A DNA stretch of 64,000 bases from Patescibacteria group bacterium (GCA_041661745.1 JBAZTR010000005.1:3283-67282); one strand, 5' to 3'; shown: positions 8,223 through 48,340, counted from the stretch's first letter. Made by a program: numbers and translations. Notes: a model not told the origin generated them from the sequence alone.

Positions 8223-8259
8223 TTTCCTATCCTCCTGAAAGGAACGGGTTACGGCGAGA

Positions 8260-8288
8260 CCTTAACACGAAACAAAAAAGGCGGCAAA
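8260..8288 (-). promoter_or_regulatory. Sigma70-type promoter of island 1 (TTGCCG-N17-TAAGGT)
   Basis: On the minus strand the sequence reads TTGCCG + 17 nt + TAAGGT, about 37 nt upstream of the start. Confidence 0.35.
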
Positions 8289-8341
8289 CCAAAACCCGCG
8301 CCTTTTTTTTGACGCGGGATTGGCTGGTGTCGGCTTTTTTA

Positions 8342-8418
8342 TGGTGGACTCGACGGGACTTGAACCCGTAACTCTAGGTACCAACCCTAAGCGAGGTTAT
8401 CATTACCTCCACGAGCCC
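8342..8418 (-). tRNA. tRNA, probable Pro(UGG), with an atypical anticodon arm
   Basis: The minus-strand sequence is GGGCTCGTGGAGGTAATGATAACCTCGCTTAGGGTTGGTACCTAGAGTTACGGGTTCAAGTCCCGTCGAGTCCACCA. It has a 7-bp acceptor stem, a D arm, a T arm (GGGTTCAAGTCCC) and an encoded CCA. The best anticodon-arm fold is TTAGG/CCTAG with loop GTTGGTA. That fold needs 2 nt between the D and anticodon stems and puts T at position 37. Confidence 0.55.
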
Positions 8419-8490
8419 ATAAACCGACGTTTTGATAAAACAAAACAGCTCCCAAAAAGACACGTTTAAATGTCTAAAGGGGAGCTGTTT

Positions 8491-8538
8491 AGTTGGTACC
8501 TAGAGTTAAGGTTCTTAATTTAGAACCTCGCTTAGATG
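8491..8538 (+). repeat. Inverted partial copy of the adjacent tRNA (anticodon and D-arm segments)
   Basis: GGTACCTAGAGTT (8496-8508) and CCTCGCTTAG (8526-8535) are exact reverse complements of internal segments of the tRNA at 8342-8418. A perfect hairpin GGTTCT-TAATTT-AGAACC lies between them. Confidence 0.5.
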
Positions 8539-8634
8539 TTTTTATTTCATCACAAAATTAATTTTTTGTCAACCCTTCGACCAAGCTCAGGGTTGACCCC
8601 GAGCCTGTCGAGAGGGTCAATGATGTTTTGTGGA

Positions 8635-9708
8635 TTATTTTTCATCTAAATCAAATTCCTCAATCATCTGTTTTTGTTTCTTAGACAGATTCTTTGGAGT
8701 TGCTACTTTTACCAAAACTAATTGATCACCACGGCCGCGACGATTAGGCACACCTCTCCCCCGCAGGCGAAATTCGGTATGTGACTGTGTACCAGCGGGA
8801 ATTTTAAGTTCAACTTTACCTTCAACTGTTTCCACCTCAACCGTACCGCCCAAAGTAGCTGTGACAAAATTAATTGTCGTCTCAGAATGAATGTCGTATC
8901 CATCACGAATAAAGCGATCGTCGTCGCGCACCCGCAAACGAATAAACAAATCGCCCGACTGGCCGCCTTTAATTGCTTCACCTTGACCAGACAAACGTAA
9001 AGTATTGCCGTCCTCCACACCAGCCGGAATATCAACGGTTAAAGTTTTTTTATTTTTTTGTAAACCGGAACCACGACATTCACTACAGGTTTTTTCCGGC
9101 GTCTCCCCCGCCCCATCGCAAGCTGAACAATTTACTTTACTCTGAATTGCCCCGAGAATAGTGCGTTGGACACGAACCTGATAACCAGCCCCGTTGCATT
9201 CGCCGCATTTTTTCATTTTGCTGCCCGGTTCAGCGCCAATTCCGCCACAACGAGGGCAAGCTTCGGTTTTATTAAAACTAACATCTTTGGAAGCACCAAA
9301 AACACTTTCTTCAAAAGTTAAAGTTAAATCAACTTGTAAATCACGTCCGCGGTTACTTCGTTTGCGCCCGCCACCACCAAAACCAAAAGCACTGCCAAAC
9401 AAATCGCCCAAGTCGCCAATGTCGCCAAAATCAAAATTAACGCCACCTTGATTGAAACCGCCAAAACCGCCACCACCAGGAAAACCTTGCGCACCGTCAA
9501 AACCGGCCGCGCCAAACTGGTCGTAGCGCTGGCGCTTTTCCGGATCACCAAGAACTTGGTAGGCTTCGTTGATTTCCTTAAACTTGGCTTCATCACCACC
9601 GACTTTATCCGGGTGATGTTGGTGAGCCAAGGTCCGAAAAGCTTTTTTAATTTCTTCGGCTGAAGCATTTTTCTCCACCCCGAGAACTTTGTAATAATCT
9701 TTGGACAT
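8635..9708 (-). CDS. dnaJ: Chaperone DnaJ
   Basis: J domain with HPD (YYKVLGV...HHPDK), a G/F-rich region and four CxxCxGxG zinc-finger repeats. Confidence 0.9.
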
Positions 9709-9714
9709 GAAATT

Positions 9715-10368
9715 TTATTTGATCATTTTTTCCAATCGCTCTACCGATAAGTCAAGGTAAGATTCTGTTACATCATCAACGCCAGGTAATTCATCGTTAT
9801 AACGTTTATCAATAATTCCGAGCACCGGTAACCCGGCCGCTTTGGCACTGGCCGCGCCATTTGGCGAATCCTCCACAGCCACACAACCATCTTTGTCACA
9901 ACCAAGTTTTTCAACAGCTTTCAAATAAACATCCGGGGCCGGTTTGCCGTTAGGCACTTCCTCGGTCGAAACAATCGTATCGAACATTGAGGTCCAACCG
10001 AGTCGATCGAATAAACGTTCGACGTAAGCCCGCGAAGCACTGGTAGCCACAGCGATTTTGGCACCAGCCGCTTTAAGCGCTCGCAAAAAATCTTCAACAC
10101 CGGGTTTCGGACTAACTCCTTCACTCTCTTCGATTTCTTTATATGCCGCAACCACATCCCGACCAAATTCATCAGGCTCTATAGACAAATCATAAGTTTG
10201 TGTCAGAAAAGAAAAATTTTCTTTCGCTGGTTTACTCATCAAGTGCTTCTGCAAAGCCGGGTCATATTGTTTCTCGTGCTTTTTCAAAGCCTTGGTCCAA
10301 GCCTTAGTCCAAACTGCTTCGCTGTCGACCAAAGTTCCGTCAAGATCGAAAATTACCGCTTTAAGCAT
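9715..10368 (-). CDS. HAD-superfamily hydrolase (beta-phosphoglucomutase/phosphatase-like)
   Basis: Motif I FDLDGTLVDSE is at the N-terminus, with a downstream K and D/D motifs of the HAD family. Confidence 0.75.
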   Translation of the reverse strand: MLKAVIFDLDGTLVDSEAVWTKAWTKALKKHEKQYDPALQKHLMSKPAKENFSFLTQTYDLSIEPDEFGRDVVAAYKEIEESEGVSPKPGVEDFLRALKAAGAKIAVATSASRAYVERLFDRLGWTSMFDTIVSTEEVPNGKPAPDVYLKAVEKLGCDKDGCVAVEDSPNGAASAKAAGLPVLGIIDKRYNDELPGVDDVTESYLDLSVERLEKMIK

Positions 10369-10371
10369 ATT

Positions 10372-10605
10372 TTAATAATCGCGTTTTTCTAACACCAAAC
10401 CAATGAATAAACAAACAATGATAACAGCCAGGCCGGCGGTGACCACGTGCCAATCAGCGGCTGAAGCCAGAGTTTTGTAGTAACCCGGACACAACTCTTT
10501 GCCCGGCACTTGTTCCATAGAGCAATCATTAGTGCGAACGGCGGACTGAAAAAACCATGACTCAATAGACTCCGTTTCCGCGGAGCCACTTGTTTTATGC
10601 GTCAT
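10372..10605 (-). CDS. Small hypothetical membrane protein (77 aa)
   Basis: The ORF lies between HAD and dnaK in the same orientation with a C-terminal TM helix. It has no recognisable motif. Confidence 0.3.
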   Translation of the reverse strand: MTHKTSGSAETESIESWFFQSAVRTNDCSMEQVPGKELCPGYYKTLASAADWHVVTAGLAVIIVCLFIGLVLEKRDY

Positions 10606-10607
10606 AA

Positions 10608-12512
10608 TTATTCGTCCTTCTTTTCTTTGAACTCAGCATCAACCGGACCATCTTGCTTTGGCGGTTCCTGATTTGGCGCGCTGTCTGTTTTGTTCGAAGA
10701 GTCTGAGCTTGTCGAAGACTGGTACATTTTGGTGGCAACTTTTTGCGCAGCGTTGGTTAACTCATCAGCCGCTTTCTTAATAGCTTCGTGATCATCGCCG
10801 TCTTTCACCTTCTTAAGTGCTTCAATTTTTTCTTCGATTTCTTTTTTCTCTTCGGCCGTGGCTTTATCACCGGCATCCTTTAACATTTTTTCAGCCGTGT
10901 AAATCATGGTCTCAGCCATGTTCTTGTGTTCGATCTGTTCTTTTTTCTTGGCATCTTCGACAGCATGTGCTTCAGCTTCGCGTTTCATGCGTTCGACTTC
11001 GTCTTTATTCAAACCAGTCGAAGCGGTAATGGTAATGCTTTGTTTTTGATTGGTGGCTTTGTCAGTTGCCGAAACACTCAATATACCGTTGGCATCAATA
11101 TCAAAAGAAACTTCAATCTGCGGAATACCACGCGGGGCCGGCGGCAGACCGGAAAGCATAAACTTTCCAAGAGTCTTGTTGTCAGAAGCCATGGGGCGTT
11201 CACCTTGAAGGACATGAATTTCCACGCTCGGCTGATTATCGCCAGCAGTGGAAAAAATTTGTGACTTGGAAGTCGGCACTGTGGTGTTACGAGTAATTAA
11301 CGGGGTCATGACACCGCCCAAAGTTTCGATACCAAGGGAAAGCGGAGTGACGTCGAGTAACAAAACATCTTTTACTTCGCCAGCCAGAACACCGCCTTGA
11401 ACAGCCGCGCCAATGGCCACGACTTCATCAGGGTTAACGCTAATGTTTGGTTTCTTACCAAAAAATTCTTCAACTTTTTTTAACACCAGCGGCATGCGGG
11501 TCATACCACCAACCATAACGATTTCTTCGATTTCGTTTTTGGAAAGTTTAGCATCACGAAGTGCGGCTTCGACTGGGCCAAAAGTTTTATCAACCAAATC
11601 CATTACCAATTCTTCCAACTTGGCGCGCGTCATGCTCAAAGCCAAATGTTTTGGGCCGTTGGCATCGCTGGTAATGAAAGGCTGGTTGATTTCCGTTTGC
11701 TGGGTGGTAGAAAGTTCGATCTTGGCTTTTTCTGCGGCATCCTTAATGCGTTGCAAAGCCAACGGATCCTTTGAGAGATCGATTCCTTCTTGCTTTTTGA
11801 ATTCACCAATAATCCAATCGATTAAAACGCGATCAAAATCATCGCCACCAAGGTGGGTATCGCCATTAGTCGACTTAACTTCAACTGTGTCAGCGGAAAC
11901 ATCAAGCACGGAAACGTCGAAAGTGCCGCCGCCCAGATCGTAAATTAAAATTTGTTGACCGACTTTTTTATCAAAGCCATAAGCCAAAGCCGCGGCTGTT
12001 GGTTCGTTGATAATACGCTTAACAGTGAGACCAGCGATTTCGCCAGCCGTTTTGGTGGCCGCGCGTTGTGCATCGTCAAAATAAGCCGGCACAGTAATAA
12101 CCGCTTCGGTAATTTTTTCACCAAGTTTTTCTTCGGCATCCTCTTTAAGCTTACGCAAAATCATGGCCGAAATTTCTTCAGGAGTCTGTTCCTTGCCACC
12201 CATCATTATGGCCACACCATCACCACGACGTTGAATTTTGTAAGGCAAAACCTTCAGGTCGCGTTGCACTTCGGCATCCTCCCAACGGCGGCCGATTAAG
12301 CGCTTAATGGAATACAAAGTATTTTCGGGATTAGTAACTGCCTGGCGTTTGGCCGTGGCGCCAACGGTGCGCTCACCGGTTTTGGAAATAGCCACAACCG
12401 ACGGCGTGGTCCGCGCGCCTTCCTTATTTTCTAAAACTTTTGGTTGTCCGCCCTCGATTACGGACATACAGGAGTTGGTGGTGCCGAGGTCGATTCCTAA
12501 TATTTTTGACAT
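10608..12512 (-). CDS. dnaK: Chaperone DnaK (Hsp70)
   Basis: N-terminus [15 protein letters not shown] and full-length Hsp70 signatures (DLGGGTFD, the substrate-binding domain and an acidic C-terminus). Confidence 0.95.
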
Positions 12513-12522
12513 ATTTATTTTT

Positions 12523-12612: not shown

Positions 12613-12620
12613 CAAGCTGG

Positions 12621-13130: not shown

Positions 13131-13167
13131 AAAATAAATTAATTTTTTACAAAGCCTTTCCGGCCTT

Positions 13168-13884
13168 TCAGTCCTTTCCGGCCTCTCCAGCATCAAGATC
13201 CAACAATTCTTTTGCCTCCTCAATCAACGCGATATTTTTTTCGTAATCCATGCGGAGCGGCCCAAGCAGGCCGAGGAAACCGGTAACTTTGTTTGGCAAC
13301 TGATATTTAACAAGAATTGCCGCCATGTCTTCGCCAAAAGGATTTTCTTTACCAATCATGACTTGCGGTTCAGACGAAATGGAGTCGAAAATCTCCCCAG
13401 CCACATCGTCGAAGCGATCGACAATGGACGACAAATTGCGCAAGACTTCAAGATCGCGAAATTCCGGTTTTTGGAAAAGGTTAGCCACCCCGGTGTAAAA
13501 ACTGCGGCGCGGATCGAAAGCGACAATGGCGGTTTCGCCGGAAAGGTCAACCAACTTTCTGGCCAGTGAACGCAAAGCGTCTTCGCCATCAAACGCCCCG
13601 ACCATGGACTGACGCAACTTGGCACTGCCACGATTAGCATGTTTGGACGGAACAAAGTTGCGCAAATAGAATTCGTAAGCCTTCTCAGTCGGCACGCGGC
13701 CAGCTGAAGCGTGCGGCGAGCGCAAGTAACCCTCATCCTCCAACACCATCATTTCGTTGCGAATAGTGGCCGGCGAAACGTCGAAACCGCAATTTTCACA
13801 AAGATACTTTGAACCAACCGGCTCAGCCGTTCGGACATATTCTTCAATTATGGCGCGCAAAATGCGCTGGCAACGTTCGTCCAT
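13168..13884 (-). CDS. hrcA: Heat-inducible transcription repressor HrcA
   Basis: N-terminal winged helix (RILRAIIEEYVRTAEPVGSKYL). It is first in an hrcA-grpE-dnaK-dnaJ array, with CIRCE immediately upstream. Confidence 0.85.
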   Translation of the reverse strand: MDERCQRILRAIIEEYVRTAEPVGSKYLCENCGFDVSPATIRNEMMVLEDEGYLRSPHASAGRVPTEKAYEFYLRNFVPSKHANRGSAKLRQSMVGAFDGEDALRSLARKLVDLSGETAIVAFDPRRSFYTGVANLFQKPEFRDLEVLRNLSSIVDRFDDVAGEIFDSISSEPQVMIGKENPFGEDMAAILVKYQLPNKVTGFLGLLGPLRMDYEKNIALIEEAKELLDLDAGEAGKD

Positions 13885-13894
13885 AAATTAAAAA

Positions 13895-13921
13895 CTAGCA
13901 CTCCCTATTATAGAGTGCTAA
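13895..13921. promoter_or_regulatory. CIRCE operator (HrcA binding site)
   Basis: CTAGCACTC-CCTATTATA-GAGTGCTAA matches TTAGCACTC-N9-GAGTGCTAA with one mismatch. It sits about 10 nt upstream of the hrcA start. Confidence 0.85.
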
Positions 13922-16493: not shown

Positions 16494-16895
16494 TCAAAGA
16501 AGGTCAACGACACAAGCGGCCGCCGAGGTCGCGAGGACAGCATGCCGGCCATCGTCCAGCTCGGGAAAGTCCTCCTCTTCCGAACCGCTGAGGAGATGCG
16601 TCCGAATCCGTACAGCACATCCGTACCGAGCCTGCTTAAACTGGGAAACCTCGTGTCGCTCGATCCAGCCGTCACGCGACACGACGAACTGTAGGCCGGC
16701 TATCCAGTCGGCCGACATTTCTACCCCGAAAGCGACGACGAAGAAAGTCAGCGTGCCGTCGTCATTACGGCTCATCGCCACGCTTTCGATGCTGTCGAAC
16801 AGGTAGAAGTCGAACGCTTCCTGGTTCAGGAAGGTGATGTTGCCAACGGAGATGGTTTCCCTTCTCCGTTGACGACGCAACGAGAAGGGATCCAT
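16494..16895 (-). CDS. Hypothetical protein, high-GC island 2 (133 aa)
   Basis: A high-GC block with ORFs open on both strands. The minus-frame protein has normal composition and is preceded by a consensus promoter. Confidence 0.4.
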   Translation of the reverse strand: MDPFSLRRQRRRETISVGNITFLNQEAFDFYLFDSIESVAMSRNDDGTLTFFVVAFGVEMSADWIAGLQFVVSRDGWIERHEVSQFKQARYGCAVRIRTHLLSGSEEEDFPELDDGRHAVLATSAAACVVDLL

Positions 16896-16924
16896 GGTGT
16901 CTCCGGGGGTGGAAGGAACAACGC

Positions 16925-16953
16925 ACCTTAGCCTTATTTTCAGTCCGTGTCAA
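16925..16953 (-). promoter_or_regulatory. Sigma70-type promoter of island 2 (TTGACA-N17-TAAGGT)
   Basis: On the minus strand, TTGACA lies at 16953-16948 and TAAGGT at 16930-16925 with an exact 17-nt spacer. The -35 hexamer falls within the last codons (GLDTD) of the antiporter gene. Confidence 0.45.
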
Positions 16954-18783: not shown

Positions 18784-19548
18784 TTGACTGATATGAAGAC
18801 GAATATTAATCTAAAACCACAGACCCTTGAACTTTTGGGGTTAAAAGCCAAGGATCTTGATGTCTATCTGGCCGTCTTAAAACTGGGTTCGGCCCCGCTC
18901 CGTCGGGTGGCCGAGGCCTCTGGTTACAATCGCGGCACCTCATACGATGCTATCAAGCGTTTAATCGCCGCCGGACTTATAAGCTATGTCGATGCCAAAC
19001 CGCATCGTTACTTCACGGCCGAAGATCCGCAAAAGCTTCGGGGTCTGGCCACCCGTCGCGAAGTAGCCCTTCAAGAAGCGCGACAACAACTCGATTCCCT
19101 TCTCCCGGATTTTCAGGCCTTGGCCGGCTCGGCGACATATCGTCCGACAGTACGTTATTACGAAGGCAAGGATGGCATAAAAGATATTTTAAAAGATGTT
19201 TTAAAAACCACCGAACGAACAAAAAACAAAACTTATCGCATTTATTCTTCGTCAAAATTACGAGAACTTATTGCCGCGGCGTGGCCAAGCTTTCTTAAAA
19301 CTCGCATTGAGCTCGGCGTTCACGTCAAAGCCATTTCCATCGGACCGGGTGGTGAAACCGCCGGACTTGATGAAAGAAAATGGTTAAGCAAAGAAAAAAG
19401 TTCATCGGCTTATATTTTCATCTATGGCAAAAAAACCGCTTACGTTTCGGCTGACGAATTCAACAAATTATTCGGAGCGATTATTGATGATGAAAATATT
19501 ACTTCGTCACAGACTATGATTTTTGACGCTTTGTGGAAATCACTTTAA
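18784..19548 (+). CDS. TrmB-family transcriptional regulator
   Basis: N-terminal wHTH (LDVYLAVLKLGSAPLRRVAEASGYNRGTSYDAIKRLIAAGLI), typical of the TrmB sugar-regulator family. Confidence 0.55.
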   Translation: MTDMKTNINLKPQTLELLGLKAKDLDVYLAVLKLGSAPLRRVAEASGYNRGTSYDAIKRLIAAGLISYVDAKPHRYFTAEDPQKLRGLATRREVALQEARQQLDSLLPDFQALAGSATYRPTVRYYEGKDGIKDILKDVLKTTERTKNKTYRIYSSSKLRELIAAAWPSFLKTRIELGVHVKAISIGPGGETAGLDERKWLSKEKSSSAYIFIYGKKTAYVSADEFNKLFGAIIDDENITSSQTMIFDALWKSL

Positions 19549-29521: not shown

Positions 29522-29550
29522 TTGACAAACGGCAATTTTTTTGCTAATCT
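29522..29550 (+). promoter_or_regulatory. Sigma70-type promoter of island 3 (TTGACA-N17-TAATCT)
   Basis: TTGACA lies at 29522-29527 and TAATCT at 29545-29550 with an exact 17-nt spacer. It is followed by a GGCCTGA-GTGAAA-TCAGGCC hairpin in the leader. Confidence 0.5.
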
Positions 29551-29608
29551 AACCCTCCTTGGCCTGAGTGAAATCAGGCCTAAACGTTCCTTGAGACAGG
29601 AGCTGGTC

Positions 29609-29830
29609 ATGCGAGGAAACTTTGGCTGGACCCCAGAGCAGAGAGAAGTGGCCAGGCGTAACGATGCCTGGCGGCGAGAACTGCGGCGCCGCGGAACCCA
29701 GGAAGGTGGCATCGTCGAAAGCGCCGACGATGTCCGGGCCATGCTCGGCAGCGGCGGCCGCTTCCTCGCCCGCTTCTTCCCAGATCGCCCCTCCGATCGT
29801 CTGCCCCCTACTTCACCCGACGATGAGTAG
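29609..29830 (+). CDS. Small hypothetical protein, high-GC island 3 (73 aa, Arg-rich)
   Basis: The ATG at 29609 is preceded by AGGAGCTGG. The GC-rich body reads MRGNFGWTPEQREVARRNDAWRRELRRRG..., and the antisense ORFs look like artifacts. GGGCTTTTTT follows the stop. Confidence 0.4.
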   Translation: MRGNFGWTPEQREVARRNDAWRRELRRRGTQEGGIVESADDVRAMLGSGGRFLARFFPDRPSDRLPPTSPDDE

Positions 29831-31319: not shown

Positions 31320-31326
31320 TTGGTTG

Positions 31327-31360
31327 GGGACTAAGGGACTGGGATACTGAGGGACTGAGT
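31327..31360. repeat. Short tandem repeat, (GGGACTxx) x4
   Basis: GGGACTAAGGGACTGGGATACTGAGGGACTGAG lies immediately after the truD stop. Confidence 0.5.
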
Positions 31361-31380
31361 TTTTGAAAACTTCGTAGATA

Positions 31381-31428
31381 CGCGAACGCCGTGTAGACTG
31401 GTTCCACCCAAGAGGGGTGGGTCTACAC
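31381..31428. terminator. Large bidirectional hairpin between convergent truD and the island-4 gene
   Basis: CGCCGTGTAGAC-tggttccacccaagaggggtgg-GTCTACACGGCG: a 12-bp stem whose loop holds a nested CCACCC/GGGTGG hairpin. Confidence 0.55.
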
Positions 31429-31459
31429 GGCGTGAGTGCGGCTGCGTCTGCTAGTGTGA

Positions 31460-32041
31460 CTAGCGGGGGACGCACCGCATGTGGGCCTCGGTGTCCAGGA
31501 CGCGGAGGTCCCGGATCTCCCCGACCTCGTCGTCGTTGAGGGCGTGGGCCGGATTCACCGTCACACTGCCGTCCGGGTTCCGGAAGCAGTGGACGTGCCC
31601 GAAGGTCCGCCCGAGGATCTCGGTGAGCTTGGCCTGGAGGGCCGGGGACATGTCCAGGGCGGGCTTTCCTGCCTCGAGGACGACGACCAGGAAGTACATC
31701 CGGTCGCCCTCCTTCTGGAACATGGTCAGCCCGGTCACGGACCATCCGAACACCCTGGTCACGTCCGCGAGGACGCAGCGCAGGGAGACGGACTGGCGTC
31801 CCTCGGCCTTCCAACCGAACACCGGCGTGCCGGAGTCGGCCTGGCGGTTGCCGACGGCATCGGTGCGATCGCCGCGGAGGCCGTCGCGGCCGGCGGCACT
31901 GGCGCGCTCGATGTTGCGCTCGGTCAGCTCGGTCTGGCGCTGGGTGGAGCGCACGGTGCAGACGACTCCGAGTCCCTTGAGCATCGCGGCCGCCCGGTCG
32001 TTGATGCGGGGCTTGACGATGAACCTGACGATCTGCGACAT
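31460..32041 (-). CDS. Hypothetical protein, high-GC island 4 (~193 aa)
   Basis: The ATG at 32041-32039 is preceded by GGAGGTTCAA. The protein MSQIVRFIVKPRINDRAAAMLKGLGV... has two VFGW repeats. The overlapping 295-aa (-) and 188/217-aa (+) ORFs are R/G/P-rich antisense artifacts. Confidence 0.45.
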   Translation of the reverse strand: MSQIVRFIVKPRINDRAAAMLKGLGVVCTVRSTQRQTELTERNIERASAAGRDGLRGDRTDAVGNRQADSGTPVFGWKAEGRQSVSLRCVLADVTRVFGWSVTGLTMFQKEGDRMYFLVVVLEAGKPALDMSPALQAKLTEILGRTFGHVHCFRNPDGSVTVNPAHALNDDEVGEIRDLRVLDTEAHMRCVPR

Positions 32042-32133
32042 TTGAACCTCCTGGCGTTGAGCCAGAGTGGTGGGGGGGGGCTGGGTGGAACGAACACTCA
32101 ATCGGACCCTTTCGGATCAGAATCAAGCGTATA

Positions 32134-32162
32134 AATATATCATAAAAACACCCTTATGTCAA
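32134..32162 (-). promoter_or_regulatory. Sigma70-type promoter of island 4 (TTGACA-N17-TATATT)
   Basis: On the minus strand, TTGACA lies at 32162-32157 and TATATT at 32139-32134 with a 17-nt spacer. The -35 hexamer sits inside the AACACCCTT-GACAT-AAGGGTGTT hairpin that terminates the upstream methyltransferase gene. Confidence 0.45.
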
Positions 32163-32691: not shown

Positions 32692-32763
32692 AGTCGCTAT
32701 ATTATATTCGAATTAATGATTATTGCCAAAACAAAAACACGCGAATCGTTTTCGTGTGTTTTT

Positions 32764-32838
32764 GGTCGGGCTGGCGGGACTTGAACCCACGGCCTCTACG
32801 TCCCGAACGTAGCGCTCTACCTACTGAGCTACAGCCCG
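32764..32838 (-). tRNA. tRNA-Pro (anticodon CGG)
   Basis: The minus-strand sequence is CGGGCTGTAGCTCAGTAGGTAGAGCGCTACGTTCGGGACGTAGAGGCCGTGGGTTCAAGTCCCGCCAGCCCGACCA. It folds into a canonical cloverleaf with a C1-G72 pair, anticodon loop TTCGGGA and an encoded CCA. Confidence 0.85.
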
Positions 32839-33912: not shown

Positions 33913-36900
33913 TTAACTACAACCCGAGGTTGCCCCGCAATTTAAGCATTTGTAACACGAGGCATTACGCACCATAATCGAACCGCAGGTGGGACAGGCT
34001 GGGGCATCAGACTGGTTATCAAAAGTTGAGGTCAAGCTCGCTTTTTTTTCGCCGGTAAACAAAGTCGGCTGTGGTTCCTCTTTACTACTGTCGGCCAGAG
34101 CAGGAACAGCAATGACAGTTTCTTCGACGCCATTATTTTCCACATTCATGACCCCGACAGCTCGTTGTTCTTCCGGTGTCATAAACTTCATGGCCATCCA
34201 GCGGAAAATGTAATCAACTAATGATTTGGCAATACGGATATTTGGGTTGTTGGTATAACCGGAAGGTTCAAAACGCATATGAACAAACCTGTTGACCAGT
34301 GACTGTAACGGCACACCATACTGCAAACCAACAGAAACTGAGGTGGCAAAGGCATCGGCCAAGCCACTAATGACCGAACCTTCTTTAGACATGGTTATAA
34401 ACATTTCACCCGGCGTGCCATCATCATATAAACCGACAGTGAGATAACCTTTGTGCGTACCCACTTGGAATTTATGAGTAATAGCTTTGCGCTCATCTGG
34501 CAAGCGACGACGCAACGGTTTGAAGGTTTCGTTGCGGCCATCGCCAACAGCCACCTCGGCTTTTTTGGCAACTTTCTTTGATTGGTCTTTATCAAGCGAA
34601 GTGGTTAAAGCCTGCTGACGTTTGGAACCGTCACGATAAACAGCCACGGCTTTAATGCCCATCTTCCAGGCTTCCACATAAACTTTTTCAATATCCTCAA
34701 CCGTGGCGCTGTTGGGCAAGTTAACGGTTTTGGAAATGGCGCCTGACAAAAACGGCTGAACCGCGGCCATCATGCGCAGGTGCCCCATGTACTGAATTGA
34801 ACGTGTGCCGTTAGCTGGTTTGAAAGCGCAATCAAAAACCGACAAATGTTCTTCTTTAAAATGCGGCGCGCCTTCAATGGTATCTTTTTCATTGATGTAA
34901 GCAAGGATATCTTTCTTTTCATCTTCGGTGTAGCCAAGGCGAGTTAAGGCTTCGGGAACGGTTTTGTTTACAATCTTAATCATGCCGCCGCCAACCAACC
35001 ACTTGTATTTAACCAAGGCAATGTCCGGTTCAACACCGGTGGTGTCGCAGTCCATTAAGAAAGCAATGGTACCAGTGGGGGCCAAAAGAGAAATTTGCGA
35101 GTTCCTAAAACCAAAGCGCGCGCCGCGTTCAACCACTTCACGCCAGGCTTCGCGGGCTTCGGAAAGCATTTGGCCAGAAACACCCTGGGCAGGAAGCTTA
35201 TCAGTTTCGTCACGATGACGACGCATGACATCAAGCATTGATTCGGCATTTTCTTGATACGAAATAAACGGCCCTTTCTTTTCGGCAATACGCGTTGACT
35301 GCGCGTAGCACACGCCGCTTTGGAGCGAAGTAATGGCCGCGGCCAAATTGCGCCCATTGTCGGAATCATAAGCCAAACCAAAACTCATGAGTAGCGCTCC
35401 GAGGTTGGCGTACCCAATACCCAAAGGACGGAAAATTAAACTGTTTTCTTCAATGGCCGGCGTTGGATAACTGGAATTGCCGACAATAATTTCCATGGCC
35501 GTAATCATGATTTCGTTGGCTTGTTTAAAAGCCGCCAGATCAAATTCAGATAAGCCGTTAACTTCTTTACGGAAGCGCATTAGGTTTAATGAAGACAAAT
35601 TGCAAGCCGAGTCATCAAGAAACATAAACTCCGAGCAAGGATTGGAAGCATTAATGCGACCGCTCTTTTTACAAGTGTGCCATTTGTTGGATTCGGTGTC
35701 GTATTGCAAACCAGGGTCACCGCATTGCCAAGCCGCTTCGCAGATTTTTTTCATGAGATCGGCGGCTTTAAAAGAAGTTGAAGGATTGCCGCTAATAACT
35801 TCTTTTGTAACCCAATCACCGCCGTTAATTATGGCGTTCATGAAATCATCGTTAACCCGCACTGAGTTGTTGGCGTTTTGAAAATAAATGGAGGAGTAAG
35901 CCGAACCATCAATGGAACCATCATACCCGGCGTCCATTAAAGCCCAGGCTTTCTTTTCTTCCTCGGCTTTGCAGATGATAAATTCTTCAATGTCAGGATG
36001 ATCGACGTTTAAAACCACCATTTTGGCGGCCCGACGAGTTTTGCCGCCACTCTTGATAACCCCGGCAAACGAGTCCAGTCCTTTCATGAAAGAGACAGGG
36101 CCAGAAGCACGACCATTGGAACCACCCAAATATTCTTTAGAGGAACGCAAAGTAGAAAAATTAGTCCCAGTGCCAGAACCACCTTTAAACAGCATACCCT
36201 CGGTAACCGCCAAGTTGAGAATGGAACGCATGTCGTCCTGCACGGAATTAATGAAACAAGCCGAACACTGCGGATTGTTTACCACTCCGACATTAAACCA
36301 CACCGGCGAATTAAACGCGGCCATTTGATTAATCAAAATATGCGTTAATTCGTGTTCAAAAACCGTGCCATCATCAGCGGTTTGAAAATAACCATCCTGT
36401 CGGCCCCAGCCGGCAATTGTTTTGGCCACGCGATCAATTAACTGGCGAGCCGATTGTTCGCGATCGGCCTGACCAACCTTACCGCGAAAATATTTTGAAG
36501 CCATGATGTTGGTGGCGGTTTGCGACCAAAATTCAGGCACCTCAACACCGGTTTGTTCAAAAACCACTTTACCCTTTTCGTTATTAATTCGAGCATCACG
36601 CAATTCCCACTTTATTTTTTCGTAAGGATGAACCCCGGCTTCGGTAAAATATCGTTTAATTTGCAAACCATGACCATAAACCGCTTCGCCGGCCTGGTGT
36701 GCACGATGTAGCGAACCAGCCCGGAAAGACATGTATTTTTTGGCAGCATGAATTAAATTATGATCAATCAGAGTCAGGTTAATCATTTCCCGAACATCCA
36801 TGGTGGTTGGCTGGCCATCGCCCTCAAAAGCCCGCTGTAGACGCGAAACCGCATGGCGAGTAATCTTGTCGATTAACTTCATGTCTTTAACCCCCGCTTC

Positions 36901-37071
36901 CACCATGGCCGCGCCGACGGAACGTTTAATTTTTTCGGCCTGAAACGGTTCGGTAATACCACTACGCTTTGTAACGATCTTTAACGAAGTAACAAAAGAC
37001 CAGGCAGCGTCGGAAACGCCGTCTGGCGATGAAACCGCTACGACTTTTGGGCCAAAGGAGGAATCGGACAT
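33913..37071 (-). CDS. nrdJ: Adenosylcobalamin-dependent ribonucleoside-triphosphate/diphosphate reductase (class II, NrdJ) with an N-terminal ATP cone
   Basis: ATP cone (VTKRSGITEPFQAEKIKRSV), the active-site region NPCSEFMFLDDSACNL and a C-terminal CxxC...CxxC zinc ribbon. The track ORF begins at a TTG at 37146; the ATG candidates are at 37071 and 37062. Confidence 0.85.
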   Translation of the reverse strand: MSDSSFGPKVVAVSSPDGVSDAAWSFVTSLKIVTKRSGITEPFQAEKIKRSVGAAMVEAGVKDMKLIDKITRHAVSRLQRAFEGDGQPTTMDVREMINLTLIDHNLIHAAKKYMSFRAGSLHRAHQAGEAVYGHGLQIKRYFTEAGVHPYEKIKWELRDARINNEKGKVVFEQTGVEVPEFWSQTATNIMASKYFRGKVGQADREQSARQLIDRVAKTIAGWGRQDGYFQTADDGTVFEHELTHILINQMAAFNSPVWFNVGVVNNPQCSACFINSVQDDMRSILNLAVTEGMLFKGGSGTGTNFSTLRSSKEYLGGSNGRASGPVSFMKGLDSFAGVIKSGGKTRRAAKMVVLNVDHPDIEEFIICKAEEEKKAWALMDAGYDGSIDGSAYSSIYFQNANNSVRVNDDFMNAIINGGDWVTKEVISGNPSTSFKAADLMKKICEAAWQCGDPGLQYDTESNKWHTCKKSGRINASNPCSEFMFLDDSACNLSSLNLMRFRKEVNGLSEFDLAAFKQANEIMITAMEIIVGNSSYPTPAIEENSLIFRPLGIGYANLGALLMSFGLAYDSDNGRNLAAAITSLQSGVCYAQSTRIAEKKGPFISYQENAESMLDVMRRHRDETDKLPAQGVSGQMLSEAREAWREVVERGARFGFRNSQISLLAPTGTIAFLMDCDTTGVEPDIALVKYKWLVGGGMIKIVNKTVPEALTRLGYTEDEKKDILAYINEKDTIEGAPHFKEEHLSVFDCAFKPANGTRSIQYMGHLRMMAAVQPFLSGAISKTVNLPNSATVEDIEKVYVEAWKMGIKAVAVYRDGSKRQQALTTSLDKDQSKKVAKKAEVAVGDGRNETFKPLRRRLPDERKAITHKFQVGTHKGYLTVGLYDDGTPGEMFITMSKEGSVISGLADAFATSVSVGLQYGVPLQSLVNRFVHMRFEPSGYTNNPNIRIAKSLVDYIFRWMAMKFMTPEEQRAVGVMNVENNGVEETVIAVPALADSSKEEPQPTLFTGEKKASLTSTFDNQSDAPACPTCGSIMVRNASCYKCLNCGATSGCS

Positions 37072-37306
37072 AAGAAGCATGGGGTTAAGGGCCAGTCCTT
37101 TTTTTAGGACAAGAAAAGACAATCCGCTGGGATTATCTTTTCGCAAAGACGCCCGTTATTGACGGTCTTTGCGCCCACTGAAACGAATCCGAAATGGTCC
37201 TCCTTTCCATTTCGTGGTGCTTATATTTTATGTCTTCCGAGGGGGTGTGTCAAAGACAAAGTTGTCCACAGAATTTATAAAAAAACGACACTTATTTTTG
37301 GCTTTG

Positions 37307-42379: not shown

Positions 42380-42383
42380 ATTT

Positions 42384-43721: not shown

Positions 43722-43724
43722 ATT

Positions 43725-44438
43725 TTAAAAAATCGTTCTTTCTTTTGAGTTCTTAATCAAGGCGTAAGCTTCTTCGGCCGTATCAACAACAGTGAAGAGT
43801 TTGGTGTCATTGACATCAATGGCGTCAAACTTTTCGCAAACATCTTTTTTGATCCAATTGACCAGCGGATCCCAAAACTCGTGGCCTAAACAAATCATGG
43901 GAACCTTTTGCGCTTTTCCGGTTTGAATTAACATGACCATTTCAAAAAATTCATCAAGCGTGCCAAAACCACCGGGGCAAAAAACATAAGCCTGAGCCGA
44001 AGCGGCCATCATGACTTTTCGGGTGAAAAAATAATAGAAAGCCCGACCTTCTTTAACATAATCATTCATGCGCTGTTTGGTTGGCAATTGAATATTTAAA
44101 CCAATTGATTGTCCGCCGGCTTCAAAAGCCCCCTTGTTGGCGGCTTCCATAATTCCCGGACCACCACCGGTAATGACGGCAAATTTATTTTTAGCCAAAA
44201 GTCGACCCAGTTTTTCGGTTTCCTTATACCAACGATTATTTTTATCAAGCCGTGCTGAACCAAAAATTGTCACCTCGCGTGAAGTTTCCGACAAAAACTG
44301 AAAACCTTCAACAAATTCGGCCATAATGCGAAAAACGCGCCAAGGAATGTCGGCCATGGTCGCCGGCGGCCGGCCGTCGTTCATAGCATCGGGAAAACGA
44401 CAGGTGTTGTCATTATTTTTTTGTTTCTTTGTCGCCAT
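43725..44438 (-). CDS. LOG-family / TIGR00730 Rossmann-fold nucleotide-binding protein (cytokinin riboside 5'-monophosphate phosphoribohydrolase-like)
   Basis: ITGGGPGIMEAANKGA...PGGFGTLDEFFE are the signature motifs. Confidence 0.8.
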   Translation of the reverse strand: MATKKQKNNDNTCRFPDAMNDGRPPATMADIPWRVFRIMAEFVEGFQFLSETSREVTIFGSARLDKNNRWYKETEKLGRLLAKNKFAVITGGGPGIMEAANKGAFEAGGQSIGLNIQLPTKQRMNDYVKEGRAFYYFFTRKVMMAASAQAYVFCPGGFGTLDEFFEMVMLIQTGKAQKVPMICLGHEFWDPLVNWIKKDVCEKFDAIDVNDTKLFTVVDTAEEAYALIKNSKERTIF

Positions 44439-44450
44439 AATTTCTATTTT

Positions 44451-45032
44451 TTAAATTTTTAAGAATTGATGAAGAATTTTATCGGCAGCCGCGGCCACTT
44501 CGGGAAACGGCGGTGATCCATCTATAATAGCATCGGCCGACGATCGATACGGTGTTATGAACTGCCGCGCGGCCGGCACCACTACCCGCCAATGATATTC
44601 CGTGTCGTAACCGGGCTGGCGAAGCAATCGCCGGCGCAAAGCTTCTTCTTCGGAAACTTCGAGCCACAAACGAAGATCAAACAAGTTTCGAATTCGCTCA
44701 TCGGAAAAAAGCATTATTCCTTCGGCAAAAATTATCGGGAAAGGGGTAAAAATTGTTTTTCCAACGCGTCGACTTTCTTTACGACTGTAAAGTGGCGACC
44801 AGATTTCGTTTCCCTTCTTTAATTCCACCAATGCCTCATAAGCCTCATCAAGATGAAAACTTTCAGGAATGTCCCAATGCGGCCGGTTTTCAACTCTTGG
44901 ACATTCGTCTTCGTCCTTATAAAAATCATCGAAACGAAAACGCTTGACTCCACCCTGGCTTTCTAAATGCTGAGCCAAAGTTGATTTGCCTGCCCCAGAG
45001 AAACCGGCTAGTCCGACAAGAAATGGAATCAT
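44451..45032 (-). CDS. P-loop nucleoside/nucleotide kinase (uridine kinase/PRK family-like)
   Basis: Walker A GLAGFSGAGKSTLA with a uridine-kinase-like architecture. Confidence 0.55.
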   Translation of the reverse strand: MIPFLVGLAGFSGAGKSTLAQHLESQGGVKRFRFDDFYKDEDECPRVENRPHWDIPESFHLDEAYEALVELKKGNEIWSPLYSRKESRRVGKTIFTPFPIIFAEGIMLFSDERIRNLFDLRLWLEVSEEEALRRRLLRQPGYDTEYHWRVVVPAARQFITPYRSSADAIIDGSPPFPEVAAAADKILHQFLKI

Positions 45033-45038
45033 AAACGT

Positions 45039-45470
45039 TTACTTCCTCCGATATTTTCCAATAAGTTCGGCTTTCCCCAACATGTTTTGTTCCATAACGG
45101 AAACAAAATTTTCCTTAGTGATATTTTCCACGTGTCCAGTCTTCAGGGCATACACAGTAAAAACGTAATGGTGGGTACCTTTCATGGGACAAGGCCCGCC
45201 ATAGCCGCGACCAGAAAAATCGTTTTTTAAATCATCACCACCGGTTTTTCCACCTTGCGAAATTTCTCGCGTCATCGCTGGAACATTAACGACTAACCAA
45301 TGCAAAAAGTTTCCCGAAGGCGAATCAGGGTCAAAACAGGATAAAGCAAAACTTTTCGTGCCCTCGGGAACATCGCTCCACTCCAAATGTGGCGAGACAT
45401 TGGCCCCATCACAAGTATGCAGAGCCGGGATAGCACCATCGGGTTTAATATCAACACTTTCTAAAATCAT
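45039..45470 (-). CDS. YbhB/YbcL-family phosphatidylethanolamine-binding protein (PEBP/RKIP-like)
   Basis: SPHLEWSDVPEGTKSFALSCFDPDSPSG...HWLV and GY.GP.P...HHYVFTVYAL are the PEBP signatures. The likely start is the internal MILESVD. Confidence 0.8.
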   Translation of the reverse strand: MILESVDIKPDGAIPALHTCDGANVSPHLEWSDVPEGTKSFALSCFDPDSPSGNFLHWLVVNVPAMTREISQGGKTGGDDLKNDFSGRGYGGPCPMKGTHHYVFTVYALKTGHVENITKENFVSVMEQNMLGKAELIGKYRRK

Positions 45471-45502
45471 AGCGACTTTATTGTACCTTGTTGGACAGGG
45501 TG

Positions 45503-45570
45503 TGTTCAATAGCAATCCTCCACCCCAACCCTCCCCCAATAGGGGAGGGAGAACCAGTTTCAGAGGAAGG
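45503..45570. repeat. GC hairpin repeat, left flank of DUF559 gene 2 (direct copy of 45943-46000)
   Basis: AATCCTCCACCCCAACCCTCCCCCAATAGGGGAGGGAGAACCAGTTTCAGA matches the right-flank copy at about 90%. Confidence 0.55.
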
Positions 45571-45576
45571 ACTAAA

Positions 45577-45954
45577 CTAAAGATTTTCCTTTATTTTCTT
45601 GACTACTGCTTCTGGATTATCCAAAACTTCTTCGTTCTTAAAGTGCAGAATCTTAAAACCCAAACCTTTTAAGTCTTCACTTCGGATTAAATCGTATTCG
45701 GCAATATCTTTCTTTAAATGAATCTTTCCATCTAATTCAATGACTAATTTTTTGCTTCGACAACAAAAATCAACAATATATCTGCCAATACCAACTTGCC
45801 GATAAAAAATAGCCCCCAGCTCTTTACGACGCAAATACTGCCAAAGAACAACTTCGGCGTCGGTTTGGTTATTTCTTAAAACTCTCCGAGTTTCTTTAAG
45901 CTTACTAGAATTAAAAACCTGTTTGTCGGACATAATATTAATCCTCCTCCCCAT
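45577..45954 (-). CDS. DUF559 endonuclease-domain protein (paralog of 28996-29418)
   Basis: AEVVLWQYLRRKELGAIFYRQVGIGRYIVDFCCRSKKLVIELDGKIH...GFKILHF is collinear with the first DUF559 protein. Confidence 0.75.
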   Translation of the reverse strand: MGRRINIMSDKQVFNSSKLKETRRVLRNNQTDAEVVLWQYLRRKELGAIFYRQVGIGRYIVDFCCRSKKLVIELDGKIHLKKDIAEYDLIRSEDLKGLGFKILHFKNEEVLDNPEAVVKKIKENL

Positions 45955-46033
45955 CCCTCCCCCAATGGGGGAGGGAGAGCTGATTTCAGACGCCGGTCTT
46001 CCCCTCCCTTTGGGAGGGGATAAGAGAGGAAGG
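45943..46033. repeat. GC hairpin repeat, right flank of DUF559 gene 2, plus a second TCTTCCCCTCCC-TTT-GGGAGGGGA hairpin
   Basis: AATCCTCCTCCCCATCCCTCCCCCAATGGGGGAGGGAGAGCTGATTTCAGA is followed by CGGTCTTCCCCTCCCTTTGGGAGGGGATAAGAG. Confidence 0.55.
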
Positions 46034-46035
46034 AT

Positions 46036-47163
46036 TTAAAATTCTTCCTCAATGGCCTGAATTAAGGTTTTCATCCCCAGGCCCTTCTCGGCCGAAACAA
46101 AGACCGGGTTATAGGTTTTCCATCTTTTAGCAATAGTACTGAAATCTGTTTTTGAACAAAGGTCGATTTTGTTAAAAACGTAAAGTTTGGGCGTTTTTTC
46201 CACACCCAATTCACACAAAACTTTTTCCACCACGGCTATTTTGAAACGCATCATGGGGTCGGAAACATCAATAACATGGAGCAGTAGATCAGATTCGACA
46301 GCTTCGGACAAAGTTGATTTGAAAGCATGAAGAAGTTCGGGTGGAAGATTTTTAATAAAACCAATAGTGTCGGAAACCAAGGCCTGTTCGTGGCGCTCGG
46401 GTAAATACAATTGACCAACGCGGGTGTCGAGAGTGGCAAAAAGTTTATTAGCCACGTATTCATGGCGGCCGGTAAGGGTATTCAAAAGCGAAGTTTTACC
46501 GGCATTGGTATAACCAACAACCGAAATCGTTTTTAAACCGCGACGCCGACGATCTTGACGATGTCCGGCCCGAACGTTTTCGTATTGCTTAATTTTTTCG
46601 ACAATAGTACGTTCGCGTTCTTTTAAGTGGCGCTTCATGCGTTCGATGTTGGTTTCGCCAATACCGCTGGTACCAATACCGCCACCTTGGCGCGATAATT
46701 CTAGCCCCATGCGAAAAATGCGCGGCCCCATGTGGCGAATGCCGGCCAATTCGATTTCCAATCGCGCTTCAGTGGTTTGAGCGTGTTTGGCAAAAATTTT
46801 CAAAATCAAATCCAGCCGGTCCCAAACCTCTACCCCGGCTGGTTTTAAAATTTCCTGGAGTTCGTACATTTGCCTGGGCTTTAGACGGTCGTTGACAATC
46901 AAAAATTTGGCGCCCAAGGTTCGACCCTCGTCGCTTAATTCGGCAGCCTTGCCCGGACCAATGAAAGTGCGTGGATGCGGGGCAAAACGCCGTTGATATT
47001 TTTTAACAATTACCAAACCGCCGAAAGTGTTAACCAACTCTTCCAGCTCACGCAAACGCTCCTCACTCTGCGCCGCCCGCATGCGCGGGTGAATCAGATC
47101 GATAAGAATGGCCTTTCCGGCGAAGCCGGATCCGGCTCCGCCGGATTTCTTTTCTGGAGTCAT
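46036..47163 (-). CDS. hflX: GTPase HflX
   Basis: The HflX N-terminal domain is followed by a G domain (ISVVGYTNAGKTSLLN, DTIGF, NKID). Confidence 0.85.
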   Translation of the reverse strand: MTPEKKSGGAGSGFAGKAILIDLIHPRMRAAQSEERLRELEELVNTFGGLVIVKKYQRRFAPHPRTFIGPGKAAELSDEGRTLGAKFLIVNDRLKPRQMYELQEILKPAGVEVWDRLDLILKIFAKHAQTTEARLEIELAGIRHMGPRIFRMGLELSRQGGGIGTSGIGETNIERMKRHLKERERTIVEKIKQYENVRAGHRQDRRRRGLKTISVVGYTNAGKTSLLNTLTGRHEYVANKLFATLDTRVGQLYLPERHEQALVSDTIGFIKNLPPELLHAFKSTLSEAVESDLLLHVIDVSDPMMRFKIAVVEKVLCELGVEKTPKLYVFNKIDLCSKTDFSTIAKRWKTYNPVFVSAEKGLGMKTLIQAIEEEF

Positions 47164-47180
47164 GGCTCCATGATATCACA

Positions 47181-47209
47181 TTGACAATTATAGATAATTA
47201 TACTAATAT
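47181..47209 (+). promoter_or_regulatory. Sigma70-type promoter of island-5 gene A (TTGACA-N17-TAATAT)
   Basis: TTGACA lies at 47181-47186 and TAATAT at 47204-47209 with an exact 17-nt spacer in an AT-rich block. The GC-rich leader begins right after the -10 hexamer. Confidence 0.5.
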
Positions 47210-47283
47210 TCTCTTCCTTGCCATTCAGGGTCTGGCTGGGATTTGTTCTCTTAACAACGACCCTATACAACACAGGTGAATAA

Positions 47284-48132
47284 ATGCGAGGCAACGCCGC
47301 GGCCCTCAAGAAACTCGTTCCCACCGTCTTCGCCGACAGCAAGGTCCGGTTCGACGAGAACACCGGCGAGCCCATCCTGGTCGTCAGGATCGTGAAGAAG
47401 GTCACCACCCAGCTCGCGAGGGAGATCAGGGTTCTGGTCATCACGACCGAGCCCGAACTCAACACCAAGGGCATGGCCGAGAAGCTCAACTCCTTCGCCT
47501 TCGACGACGAGAAGATCTACGAGCTCCACTTCGACCGGGACGGCCTCAAGACCTGCCTGGTCGATGACGTGGTCGTCGAGGCCACCAAGAACCCGGGGCT
47601 CCGGGAATTCCTCTCGCACTACTTCCACAACTGCTGCACCGCGGTCAGCGACCTCGACAAGACGCTGGGACGCCTCCCCTCGGTGGAGCAGCTCACCGGG
47701 GACATCGAACGCGAAGTCGAGCCGCGACTCGTGGAAGCCTTCACCAAGGGCAACCCGGTCGCCTTCGTCACCGGCCCGACCAACATCGTGCCGATCTGCC
47801 CCTGCAAGGCAACGATGCTCGACCCCTTGTTCCTCGACGTCCTCGGCATGGTCGGCGGCGAGGAGCTCAAGACCCTCAACAAGAAGCGAGCCGAGCTCGA
47901 GGCGATGGCCCGGGACAAGGCGACTCTCGTTACCATCGTCCCTGTGGAGTGCCGCAACATCTTCTTCAACCTCGCCGCCACGATCATCGTCGCAGCGATC
48001 GAGGCCCTGCTCCCGGACATCGTCCAGGCCGAGCAGGACAAGATCGCGGTCAACGCGGGGGCGGCCATCGCGGCCCTCCACGACGCACGGCGCGCGACCG
48101 CCGAGGCCAGCACCGACATGACCGAGGCCTAG
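47284..48132 (+). CDS. Hypothetical protein, high-GC island 5 paralog A (282 aa; HNCC and PICPCK Cys motifs)
   Basis: The ATG is preceded by AGGTGAATAA. Composition is balanced and third-codon positions are almost all G/C. It is homologous over most of its length to the next gene. The antisense ORFs (47263-48174 minus, 47564-48121 plus) are artifacts. Confidence 0.5.
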   Translation: MRGNAAALKKLVPTVFADSKVRFDENTGEPILVVRIVKKVTTQLAREIRVLVITTEPELNTKGMAEKLNSFAFDDEKIYELHFDRDGLKTCLVDDVVVEATKNPGLREFLSHYFHNCCTAVSDLDKTLGRLPSVEQLTGDIEREVEPRLVEAFTKGNPVAFVTGPTNIVPICPCKATMLDPLFLDVLGMVGGEELKTLNKKRAELEAMARDKATLVTIVPVECRNIFFNLAATIIVAAIEALLPDIVQAEQDKIAVNAGAAIAALHDARRATAEASTDMTEA

Positions 48133-48233
48133 CCCAGGCCCACGTTCCCGCTTCTTCAGAAGAAGCCACGGCAACTCTTGCCGCGCGCTCTATGGAGAAG
48201 TGGTTTTTTATTTTAGAAAACAACAACGCGGCG

Positions 48234-48262
48234 TTGACAAGGCCGGGGAAATATTATAATCT
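48234..48262 (+). promoter_or_regulatory. Sigma70-type promoter of island-5 gene B (TTGACA-N17-TAATCT)
   Basis: TTGACA lies at 48234-48239 and TAATCT at 48257-48262 with a 17-nt spacer. The leader that follows is homologous to the gene A leader (GCCATAAGGGGTCTGGCGTGGGTTGTTCC versus GCCATTCAGGGTCTGGCTGGGATTTGTTC). Confidence 0.5.
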
Positions 48263-48340
48263 TTTCCTCCTGCCATAAGGGGTCTGGCGTGGGTTGTTCC
48301 TAAAAATTTGACTGACCCCAACCTTTGTTCGGAGGTTCCC

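Follow-up and report, generated by a model that had tools for sequence, protein, structure and literature searches.

A conserved GTTCC motif in the leaders of GC-rich genes of a Patescibacteria genome, a candidate cis-regulatory element

Background

Several described systems act through short sequences or structures in mRNA leaders. CsrA/RsmA regulons are marked by GGA sites, which lie in hairpin loops of the leader or at the Shine-Dalgarno (SD) sequence; bS1/30S-platform enhancers are pyrimidine- or U-rich, lie upstream of the SD and have little sequence specificity; and 5'-terminal stem-loops of the ompA/aprE type stabilise long-lived mRNAs. To our knowledge almost nothing is known about gene regulation in the Patescibacteria (candidate phyla radiation, CPR, bacteria), which are mostly uncultivated, and our literature searches returned nothing about leader motifs or GC-rich genes in this group. 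Here we analyse the leaders of six GC-rich genes, called I1, I2, I3, I4, I5A and I5B, in a 64,000-nt stretch of a Patescibacteria metagenome-assembled genome (MAG; GCA_041661745.1 JBAZTR010000005.1:3283-67282). This whole stretch, which is 45% GC, is called the window below, and relatives of its TruD protein place the source genome close to Candidatus Uhrbacteria. A sequence-only reading of the window had proposed that a GTTCC(TT) or CCTCC tract upstream of all six genes may be a shared cis-regulatory element.

These leaders resemble each of the known systems in some respects. As in CsrA/RsmA-type regulons, unrelated mRNAs share a short leader sequence that is adjacent to the SD or lies in a hairpin loop, but it is a pyrimidine-rich GUUCCUU and not GGA. 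In I1-I3 it lies at roughly -24 to -17 from the start codon, directly 5' of the SD, as do bS1/30S enhancers; unlike them it has a specific G-U-U-C-C core, and in the I5 family it is 37-50 nt upstream in a hairpin. I3, I4, I5A, I5B and their orthologues share with the ompA/aprE stabilisers a hairpin 5-15 nt after the transcript start (start sites were inferred from promoter consensus throughout), but there is none in I1 and I2 and the hairpin sequences here are family-specific. In RNA thermometers (fourU, ROSE and the short cyanobacterial hsp17 type), as in I1, I3 and the I1 orthologue L055 (L numbers are our handles for related loci), a short pyrimidine tract a little 5' of the SD can pair with it into a hairpin of 4-6 bp, here of -3 to -7 kcal/mol. 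The present leaders differ from thermometers in having no Rfam match, occlusion at the level given by composition, no predicted melting, conservation beyond pairing and, in the I5 family, a motif that does not face the SD. The leader motif belongs to a familiar category, and the present motif and the I5 hairpin are absent from Rfam.

The motif and its enrichment

The GC content at third codon positions (GC3) of the six genes is 0.70-0.94, compared with 0.38-0.48 in the window's truD, hflX and rlmN, and every one is a unit of its own with promoter, leader, SD, open reading frame (ORF) and terminal hairpin (Table 1). I5A and I5B are paralogues (39% identity) and the remaining families are mutually unrelated; there are therefore five independent families, not six. 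The leader strings quoted in the sequence-only reading are all present, on the sense strand and between a sigma-70-like promoter (-10 box) and the start codon. Exact GTTCC was found in five of the six leaders, I5A having GTTCT, and the strong AGGAG(G) site that the earlier reading placed in each was found in four, I2 having GGAGA and I5A AGGTG. The motif of I1-I3 is 5'-adjacent to the SD, without the hairpin of the I5 type described below. Across the leaders the distance from the -10 box to the motif varies from 5 to about 47 nt, whereas that from motif start to start codon is nearly constant in I1-I3 (Table 1) and in L055 (21 nt).

Comparison with shuffled leaders indicates that this recurrence is above chance. 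Some 5-mer is present in at least five of six leaders in only 51 of 2000 dinucleotide-shuffled sets (2.5%), and some 6-mer in at least four of six, as GTTCCT is, in 43 of 2000 (2.1%). An expectation-maximization (EM) motif finder returned the SD at width 6 and YGTTCCTT in 6/6 leaders at widths of 8-12, above 40/40 shuffled sets (z ~4). At the GTTCC frequency of the window (0.81/kb/strand) about 0.3 occurrences are expected in the 367 nt of leader, where 6 were observed, and of the window's 57 ORFs outside the islands a single one is preceded by GTTCC within 120 nt. Further occurrences of GTTCCACCC (319-327) and GGGGTCTGGC (19040-19049) are both within coding sequence and were set aside as chance matches.

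Table 1. Coordinates of the GC-rich genes and of the features of their leaders, counted from the first nucleotide of the window
Feature	Coordinates	Strand	Remarks
I1 gene	7692..8222	-	176 aa, DUF5680, GC3 0.79, ATG at 8222
I1 leader CCGTTCCTTTCAGGAGG	8231..8247	-	motif directly beside SD; motif start 23 nt before ATG
I1 -10 box TAAGGT	8259..8264	-	-35 weak; TAAGGT also in orthologue L055
Terminator-like hairpin	8295-8318		between I1 and upstream tRNA-Pro
I2 gene	16494..16895	-	133 aa, GC3 0.70, ATG at 16895
I2 leader GCGTTGTTCCTTCCACCCCCGGAGA	16900..16924	-	motif start 24 nt before ATG
I2 promoter TTGACA-N17-TAAGGT	16925..16953	-	
I3 promoter TTGACA-N17-TAATCT	29522..29550	+	
I3 5'-proximal hairpin GGCCUGA-GUGAAA-UCAGGCC	29561..29580	+	CCTCCTT before hairpin, at inferred transcript start
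I3 motif and SD AACGTTCCTTGAGACAGGAGC	29583..29603	+	motif start 23 nt before ATG
I3 gene	29610..29830	+	73 aa, GC3 0.73
I4 3' hairpin	31388..31431	-	between convergent genes truD and I4
I4 gene	31460..32041	-	193 aa, GC3 0.94
I4 motif GTGTTCGTTCCACCCAGCCCC	32077..32097	-	
I4 5'-proximal hairpin GAUCC-GAAA-GGGUC	32105..32118	-	
I4 promoter TTGACA-N17-TATATT	32134..32162	-	extended -10 TG
I5A promoter TTGACA-N17-TAATAT	47181..47209	+	
I5A I5-type structured leader CCUUGCCA	47212..47268	+	outer stem AGGGUC/GACCCU, inner stem, apical loop with UGUUCU
I5A leader string GGATTTGTTCTCTT	47239-47252	+	
I5A gene	47284..48132	+	282 aa, GC3 0.93
I5B promoter TTGACA-N17-TAATCT	48234..48262	+	
I5B I5-type structured leader	48265..48323	+	stem GGGGUC/GACCCC, GUUCC in loop region
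I5B leader string GGGTTGTTCCTAAA	48291-48304	+	
I5B leader string GTTCGGAGG	48327-48335	+	
I5B gene	48341..49072	+	243 aa, GTG start, GC3 0.80

Conservation of the motif in related genomes

The I1 orthologue L055, whose protein has 50% amino-acid identity and whose GC3 is only 0.41, retains exactly the TAAGGT -10 box, the 9-mer CGTTCCTTT and the SD, while the sequence between them and the flanks have diverged. The I4 orthologue in L011 retains AGTGTTCC and also has the AGTGTTC of the I4 motif. Eight I5-type leaders from four assemblies retain CCTTGCYA-(loop)-GTCTGGC-NNGG-N2-4-GTTCY-TTT, with GG-R-A-U-GUUCY-UUU as their shared motif region. The conserved stretch, C/U-G-U-U-C-C-U-U, exceeds what pairing with the SD needs, G-U-U not being required for it. 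Since the motif occurs above chance, is kept in orthologous leaders (L055 for I1, L011 for I4 and the eight of I5 type) and is always on the transcribed sense strand, the cis-regulatory role suggested earlier appears likely.

Several observations weigh against a dedicated element. The motif is short, and when the paralogy of I5A and I5B and the post hoc choice of word are allowed for, its significance is modest (~0.02, k-mer shuffles). The distant I4 homologues L012, L013, L023-L027 and L034 have other leaders without exact GTTCC, and the I3 orthologue in L011 has CCUUUUCCUUC, not GUUCC. The I5A motif has a predicted unpaired probability of only 0.33. At other loci GTTC[CT]T is found with 5/15 high-GC3 ORFs vs 10/149, a test that adds little because the same families dominate it.

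One alternative is that the motif has no dedicated function and arises incidentally where leaders rich in pyrimidines and poor in purines precede strong SDs, together with the shared ancestry of some of them (I5A/I5B and the orthologues). The leaders are indeed CU-rich, the k-mer shuffles give p of only ~0.02-0.03, and the distant I4/I5 relatives L007-1, L008, L012 and L013, which lack exact GTTCC, have CU tracts (UUCCUUC, for example); the test outside the window is, as just noted, weak. On the other hand, dinucleotide-preserving and mononucleotide shuffles seldom reproduce the motif, GTTCC is rare upstream of host genes (above) and the exact 9-mer survives in I1 orthologues despite their diverged flanks. 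In addition, the leaders are unlikely to descend from one ancestor, given that the five families encode unrelated proteins. We give this explanation a small but real chance.

The I5-type leader hairpin and other leader structures

The I5 leaders fold into a family-specific hairpin. Its 6-bp outer stem (GGGGUC/GACCCC) is 97% paired among these leaders, with compensatory changes (GC/AU/GU) at two pairs, compared with 13-45% in slid controls; support for the stem is modest because there are only six distinct sequences. RNAalifold independently gives the same outer stem plus an inner GGAA/UUYY stem with UGUUCY as apical loop, and the sole variation in a possible GCCA/UGGC pseudoknot stem is a U·G pair, which speaks neither for nor against it. 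The motif lies 39-45 nt before the start codon in the two paralogues I5A and I5B (37-50 nt in relatives), and its predicted unpaired probability is 0.77 in I5B and 0.66-0.98 in the I5-type leaders of related genomes. We regard this hairpin as a candidate new cis-regulatory RNA, modestly backed by the compensatory changes in its stem.

A covariance model (R1) built from six I5 leaders, with I5A in the seed and I5B held out, was run against 268 kb. It gave 57.7 bits for the seed member I5A (E = 1.8e-11), 22.5 bits for the held-out I5B (E = 0.0045) and E = 1e-5 for the P0004 leader. Only leaders of the I5 family were matched, with no I1-I4 leader at E ≤ 10, and no Rfam family matches any leader at gathering or E-value thresholds. 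The idea of one structured RNA common to all six leaders was rejected on these two grounds. A metagenome scan with the I5 leader pattern found two new true leaders (L015:2010 and L019:12271), its other five loci being chance matches inside coding sequence; the leaders that this metagenome-wide scan recovered all belong to one small clade. These two leaders differ in what precedes them: L015:1975-2100 and L019:12236-12360, on two contigs of one metagenome, carry the same I5-type leader and gene start (>90 nt identical) behind two different promoters, which suggests promoter swapping or recombination between paralogous units.

A second candidate family of structured leaders, distinct from the I5 type, is found upstream of the I4 homologue in high-GC Uhrbacteria (L012:4830-5000, L023 and L024). 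These conserved leaders of ~130 nt (CCGACGATG...GGGCATATTTTCTTGGAGG) have no Rfam match, and L025 and L027 have a shorter version.

The sequence-only reading had also cited a 12-bp hairpin at 31381-31428 as displaying the motif in its loop. The hairpin exists (at 31388-31431) and carries GTTCCACCC on the + strand, but it is located at the 3' end of the minus-strand I4 gene, between convergent truD and I4, and is therefore outside any leader, with the string on the strand opposite to I4. A 9-nt complementarity between the I4 leader (GUUCCACCC) and this 3' hairpin (GGGUGGAAC), which could have paired the 5' and 3' untranslated regions, has a chance expectation of ~0.03 and is not kept in L011, and we take it to be a coincidence. 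Short tandem-like GGGACT repeats (GGGGACTAAGGGACTGGGATACTGAGGGACTGAG) are present at 31322-31362 (+), between the truD stop codon and the hairpin.

Pairing of the motif with the SD

The mechanism first suggested for the motif was sequestration in cis: the UUCCU/CCUCC tract would pair with its own AGGAG(G) and damp translation, possibly in a temperature-dependent manner. The tracts are complementary to the SD, and RNAfold does pair them in I1 (UCCUU/GAGGA) and in I3 (GUUCCU/AGGAGC, a local hairpin of -7.0 kcal/mol), as well as the 5' CCUCC with GGAGG in I5B. The SD cores are mostly paired (unpaired probability 0.01-0.38), L055 (UUCC/GGAG) and the L011 orthologue of I3 retain the capacity to pair, and I1 lies just downstream of the hrcA-grpE-dnaK-dnaJ operon. 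These points are outweighed by the evidence against a specific occlusion, which is no greater than that of controls. Over 12 leaders the SD core has a predicted unpaired probability of 0.244, compared with 0.26 after shuffling of the upstream leader, and 36% of the shuffle sets reach values as low. An analysis of 17 leaders likewise found SD accessibility equal to that of shuffled-upstream controls, and no difference was seen between island leaders and host genes (0.35 vs 0.37, p = 0.8). A CU-rich leader of any kind will pair with an SD, and the particular order of its bases adds nothing measurable to occlusion.

Neither does the folding point to a dedicated switch. No leader folds better than its own shuffles in RNAfold (z from -1.2 to +1.6), the in silico shift in SD accessibility between 10 and 55 °C is at most 0.19, and Rfam has no thermometer or other cis-regulatory family that matches any leader. 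In the I5-type leaders the motif is in a hairpin loop that does not face the SD, which is generally more accessible there than in controls; nor is the conserved G-U-U needed for pairing. SD sequestration, thermometer-like or not, is thus not borne out as the common mechanism, and we consider it unlikely to account for the motif.

Promoters, and the possibility of a DNA operator

The window has eight perfect TTGACA-N16-18-TANNNT sites where 1.35 are expected, and five of the eight precede I2, I3, I4, I5A and I5B. The I1, I3, I4 and I5 families keep near-consensus sigma-70 promoters in related genomes, and I4 homologues in genomes of 40-64% GC retain TTGACAaaag...TTTTATGATATAnT. One of the three perfect promoters outside the islands (37225-37253, -) precedes the gene for a class II ribonucleotide reductase (33913-37146), whose leader is ~80 nt long. 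The perfect TTGACA-N16-TATAAT promoter of hrcA (13168-13884) has a CIRCE element (TTAGCACTC-N9-GAGTGCTA; 13896-13921, -) inside it and heads the hrcA-grpE-dnaK-dnaJ operon, whose end directly precedes tRNA-Pro and I1.

With every site near a strong promoter, GTTCC or TTCC-N-GGAA might be a transcription-factor site that represses or activates all six promoters, and several leaders do contain TTCC...GGAA or GGAA-N1-2-TTCC inverted repeats (L011 TTCCTTTCGGAA, L012 GCTTCCAAGTCCGGAAGC and L019 GGAAGTTCC). Such an operator is improbable. Its distance from the -10 box would range from 5 to ~47 nt and its orientation would always be that of the sense strand, the EM finder detected no longer shared palindrome, and the I5 motif is inside an RNA hairpin with compensatory changes. 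The variable distance to the promoter, together with the constant distance to the start codon in I1-I3, fits an action on RNA or translation better than a promoter operator. A -35 box for an extracytoplasmic function (ECF) sigma factor, GGAAC on the opposite strand, was also considered and dropped, since no suitable -10 box was seen at the right spacing (by eye).

A possible RNA-level element

An RNA-level element is favoured over a DNA operator and over simple occlusion in cis by its restriction to the sense strand, the variable promoter distance, the constant start-codon distance in the short leaders, the display in a loop with covariation and the conservation beyond pairing. We tentatively prefer, with somewhat less than even confidence, the reading that YGUUCCUU is a sequence-specific RNA element of the 5' untranslated region that a common trans-acting factor or the 30S subunit would recognise. 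The element would sit in the 5' leaders of a few unrelated, strongly promoted, lineage-specific and GC3-elevated genes. In the short leaders (I1, I2 and I3) it would be within the region covered by the 30S initiation complex, and in the I5 family a conserved two-tier hairpin would display it in its apical loop. Candidates for a common trans-acting reader, whose existence and identity we infer, are RNA-binding proteins, small RNAs carrying an AAGGAAC-like seed, and the 30S platform. Such a reader would set translation initiation and/or mRNA stability jointly, and the genes would form a post-transcriptional regulon.

A bolder version is that YGUUCCUU is the address label of an unrecognised post-transcriptional regulon in Uhrbacteria-like Patescibacteria, in which a dedicated reader would control a few ancient lineage-restricted genes and the motif, promoters and GC3 bias would be parts of one expression regime. 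The I4 and I5 families have near-consensus promoters and gene-specific GC3 elevation across genomes of 33-64% GC; we nevertheless hold this version to be rather doubtful.

The GC-rich genes are old residents

The six genes had been called cassettes, a description that does not fit their distribution, as the genes of the I1, I3, I4 and I5 families occupy matching syntenic positions in related Patescibacteria and have been retained vertically. The I1 orthologue lies between the 3' end of dnaJ and pilM, as in the window, and a 73-aa I3 gene is upstream of truD in L011. Homologues of I4 are convergent to truD in L011, L012 and nine loci of a TruD-based genome scan that include Uhrbacteria and a Doudnabacteria MAG (at least 11 genomes). 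An exhaustive profile search with the I5 family found only nine representatives among 1.84 billion proteins, with loci again beside hflX, rlmN and Nramp. The I2 protein has no family match. AlphaFold2 models of I4 and I5A are confident (predicted local distance difference test, pLDDT, scores of 86 and 89.8, respectively), and they have no significant neighbour in the PDB or among viral structures; PHROG and PADLOC gave no matches for the GC-rich genes. Because of their synteny and the lack of structural, PHROG and PADLOC matches, we conclude that these genes are old and lineage-specific, with a gene-specific composition.

With phage morons, tRNA-linked islands and integron cassettes they have in common that each unit consists of one gene, has a promoter and a terminator of its own and deviates in GC content, and that I1 and I4 are near tRNA-Pro genes. 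They differ from all of these in being syntenic in many Patescibacteria, in the absence of PHROG/PADLOC matches, attC core and array, and in that no integrase was seen among the neighbours examined. Recent horizontal transfer, a phage moron and a defence island were ruled out by the synteny in relatives and the missing PHROG/PADLOC matches. An integron cassette was rejected since GTTCCTT has pyrimidines after GTT where the attC core is GTTRRRY, and the genes are scattered across 40 kb, some on each strand.

The elevated GC3 is itself conserved. In low-GC relatives the values for the I4 homologue and truD are 0.71/0.27, 0.74/0.35, 0.76/0.33, 0.77/0.40 and 0.86/0.48; in every low-GC genome examined, GC3 is 0.3-0.45 higher in the I4 homologue than in the neighbouring truD, and most I5 homologues show a similar elevation. 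Besides the I4 and I5 genes of the window, this elevation concerns loci L025, L027, L031, L034, L037, L019, L006 and L008. Recent transfer does not explain this elevation; candidate causes are selection for expression or mRNA stability, biased conversion and repeated replacement. More small high-GC3 ORFs are present near I4/I5 homologues (L025:7013-7348, L027:6361-6603 and 7000-7359, and L008:14-682), and GC-elevated genes appear to be recurrent in these genomes beyond the families of the window.

Two tRNA-Pro genes, with anticodons UGG and CGG, lie at 8342-8418 (-), just upstream of I1, and at 32763-32838 (-), ~0.7 kb upstream of I4. With the Rfam tRNA model the first reaches a score of only 37 bits. 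The tRNA-Pro(CGG) reads a codon that is frequent in GC-rich genes. At 52270-52530 there is a GC-rich region of ~250 nt (up to 66%) with no ORF of 100 aa or more, complementary ends (CGCCCCGUG...CGCGGGGCG) and then a T-run on the + strand. It matches no Rfam family even at E ≤ 1 and may be an unclassified structured RNA.

Conclusions

A leader motif that is common to unrelated genes, conserved and tied to near-consensus promoters is a hypothesis that can be tested by mutation, and the I5 hairpin is a second testable element. The more puzzling fact is that the GC-rich genes are not recent foreign cassettes but old residents with a codon composition that is kept distinct from that of the genome, and the leaders offer a handle for studying how these genes are expressed.

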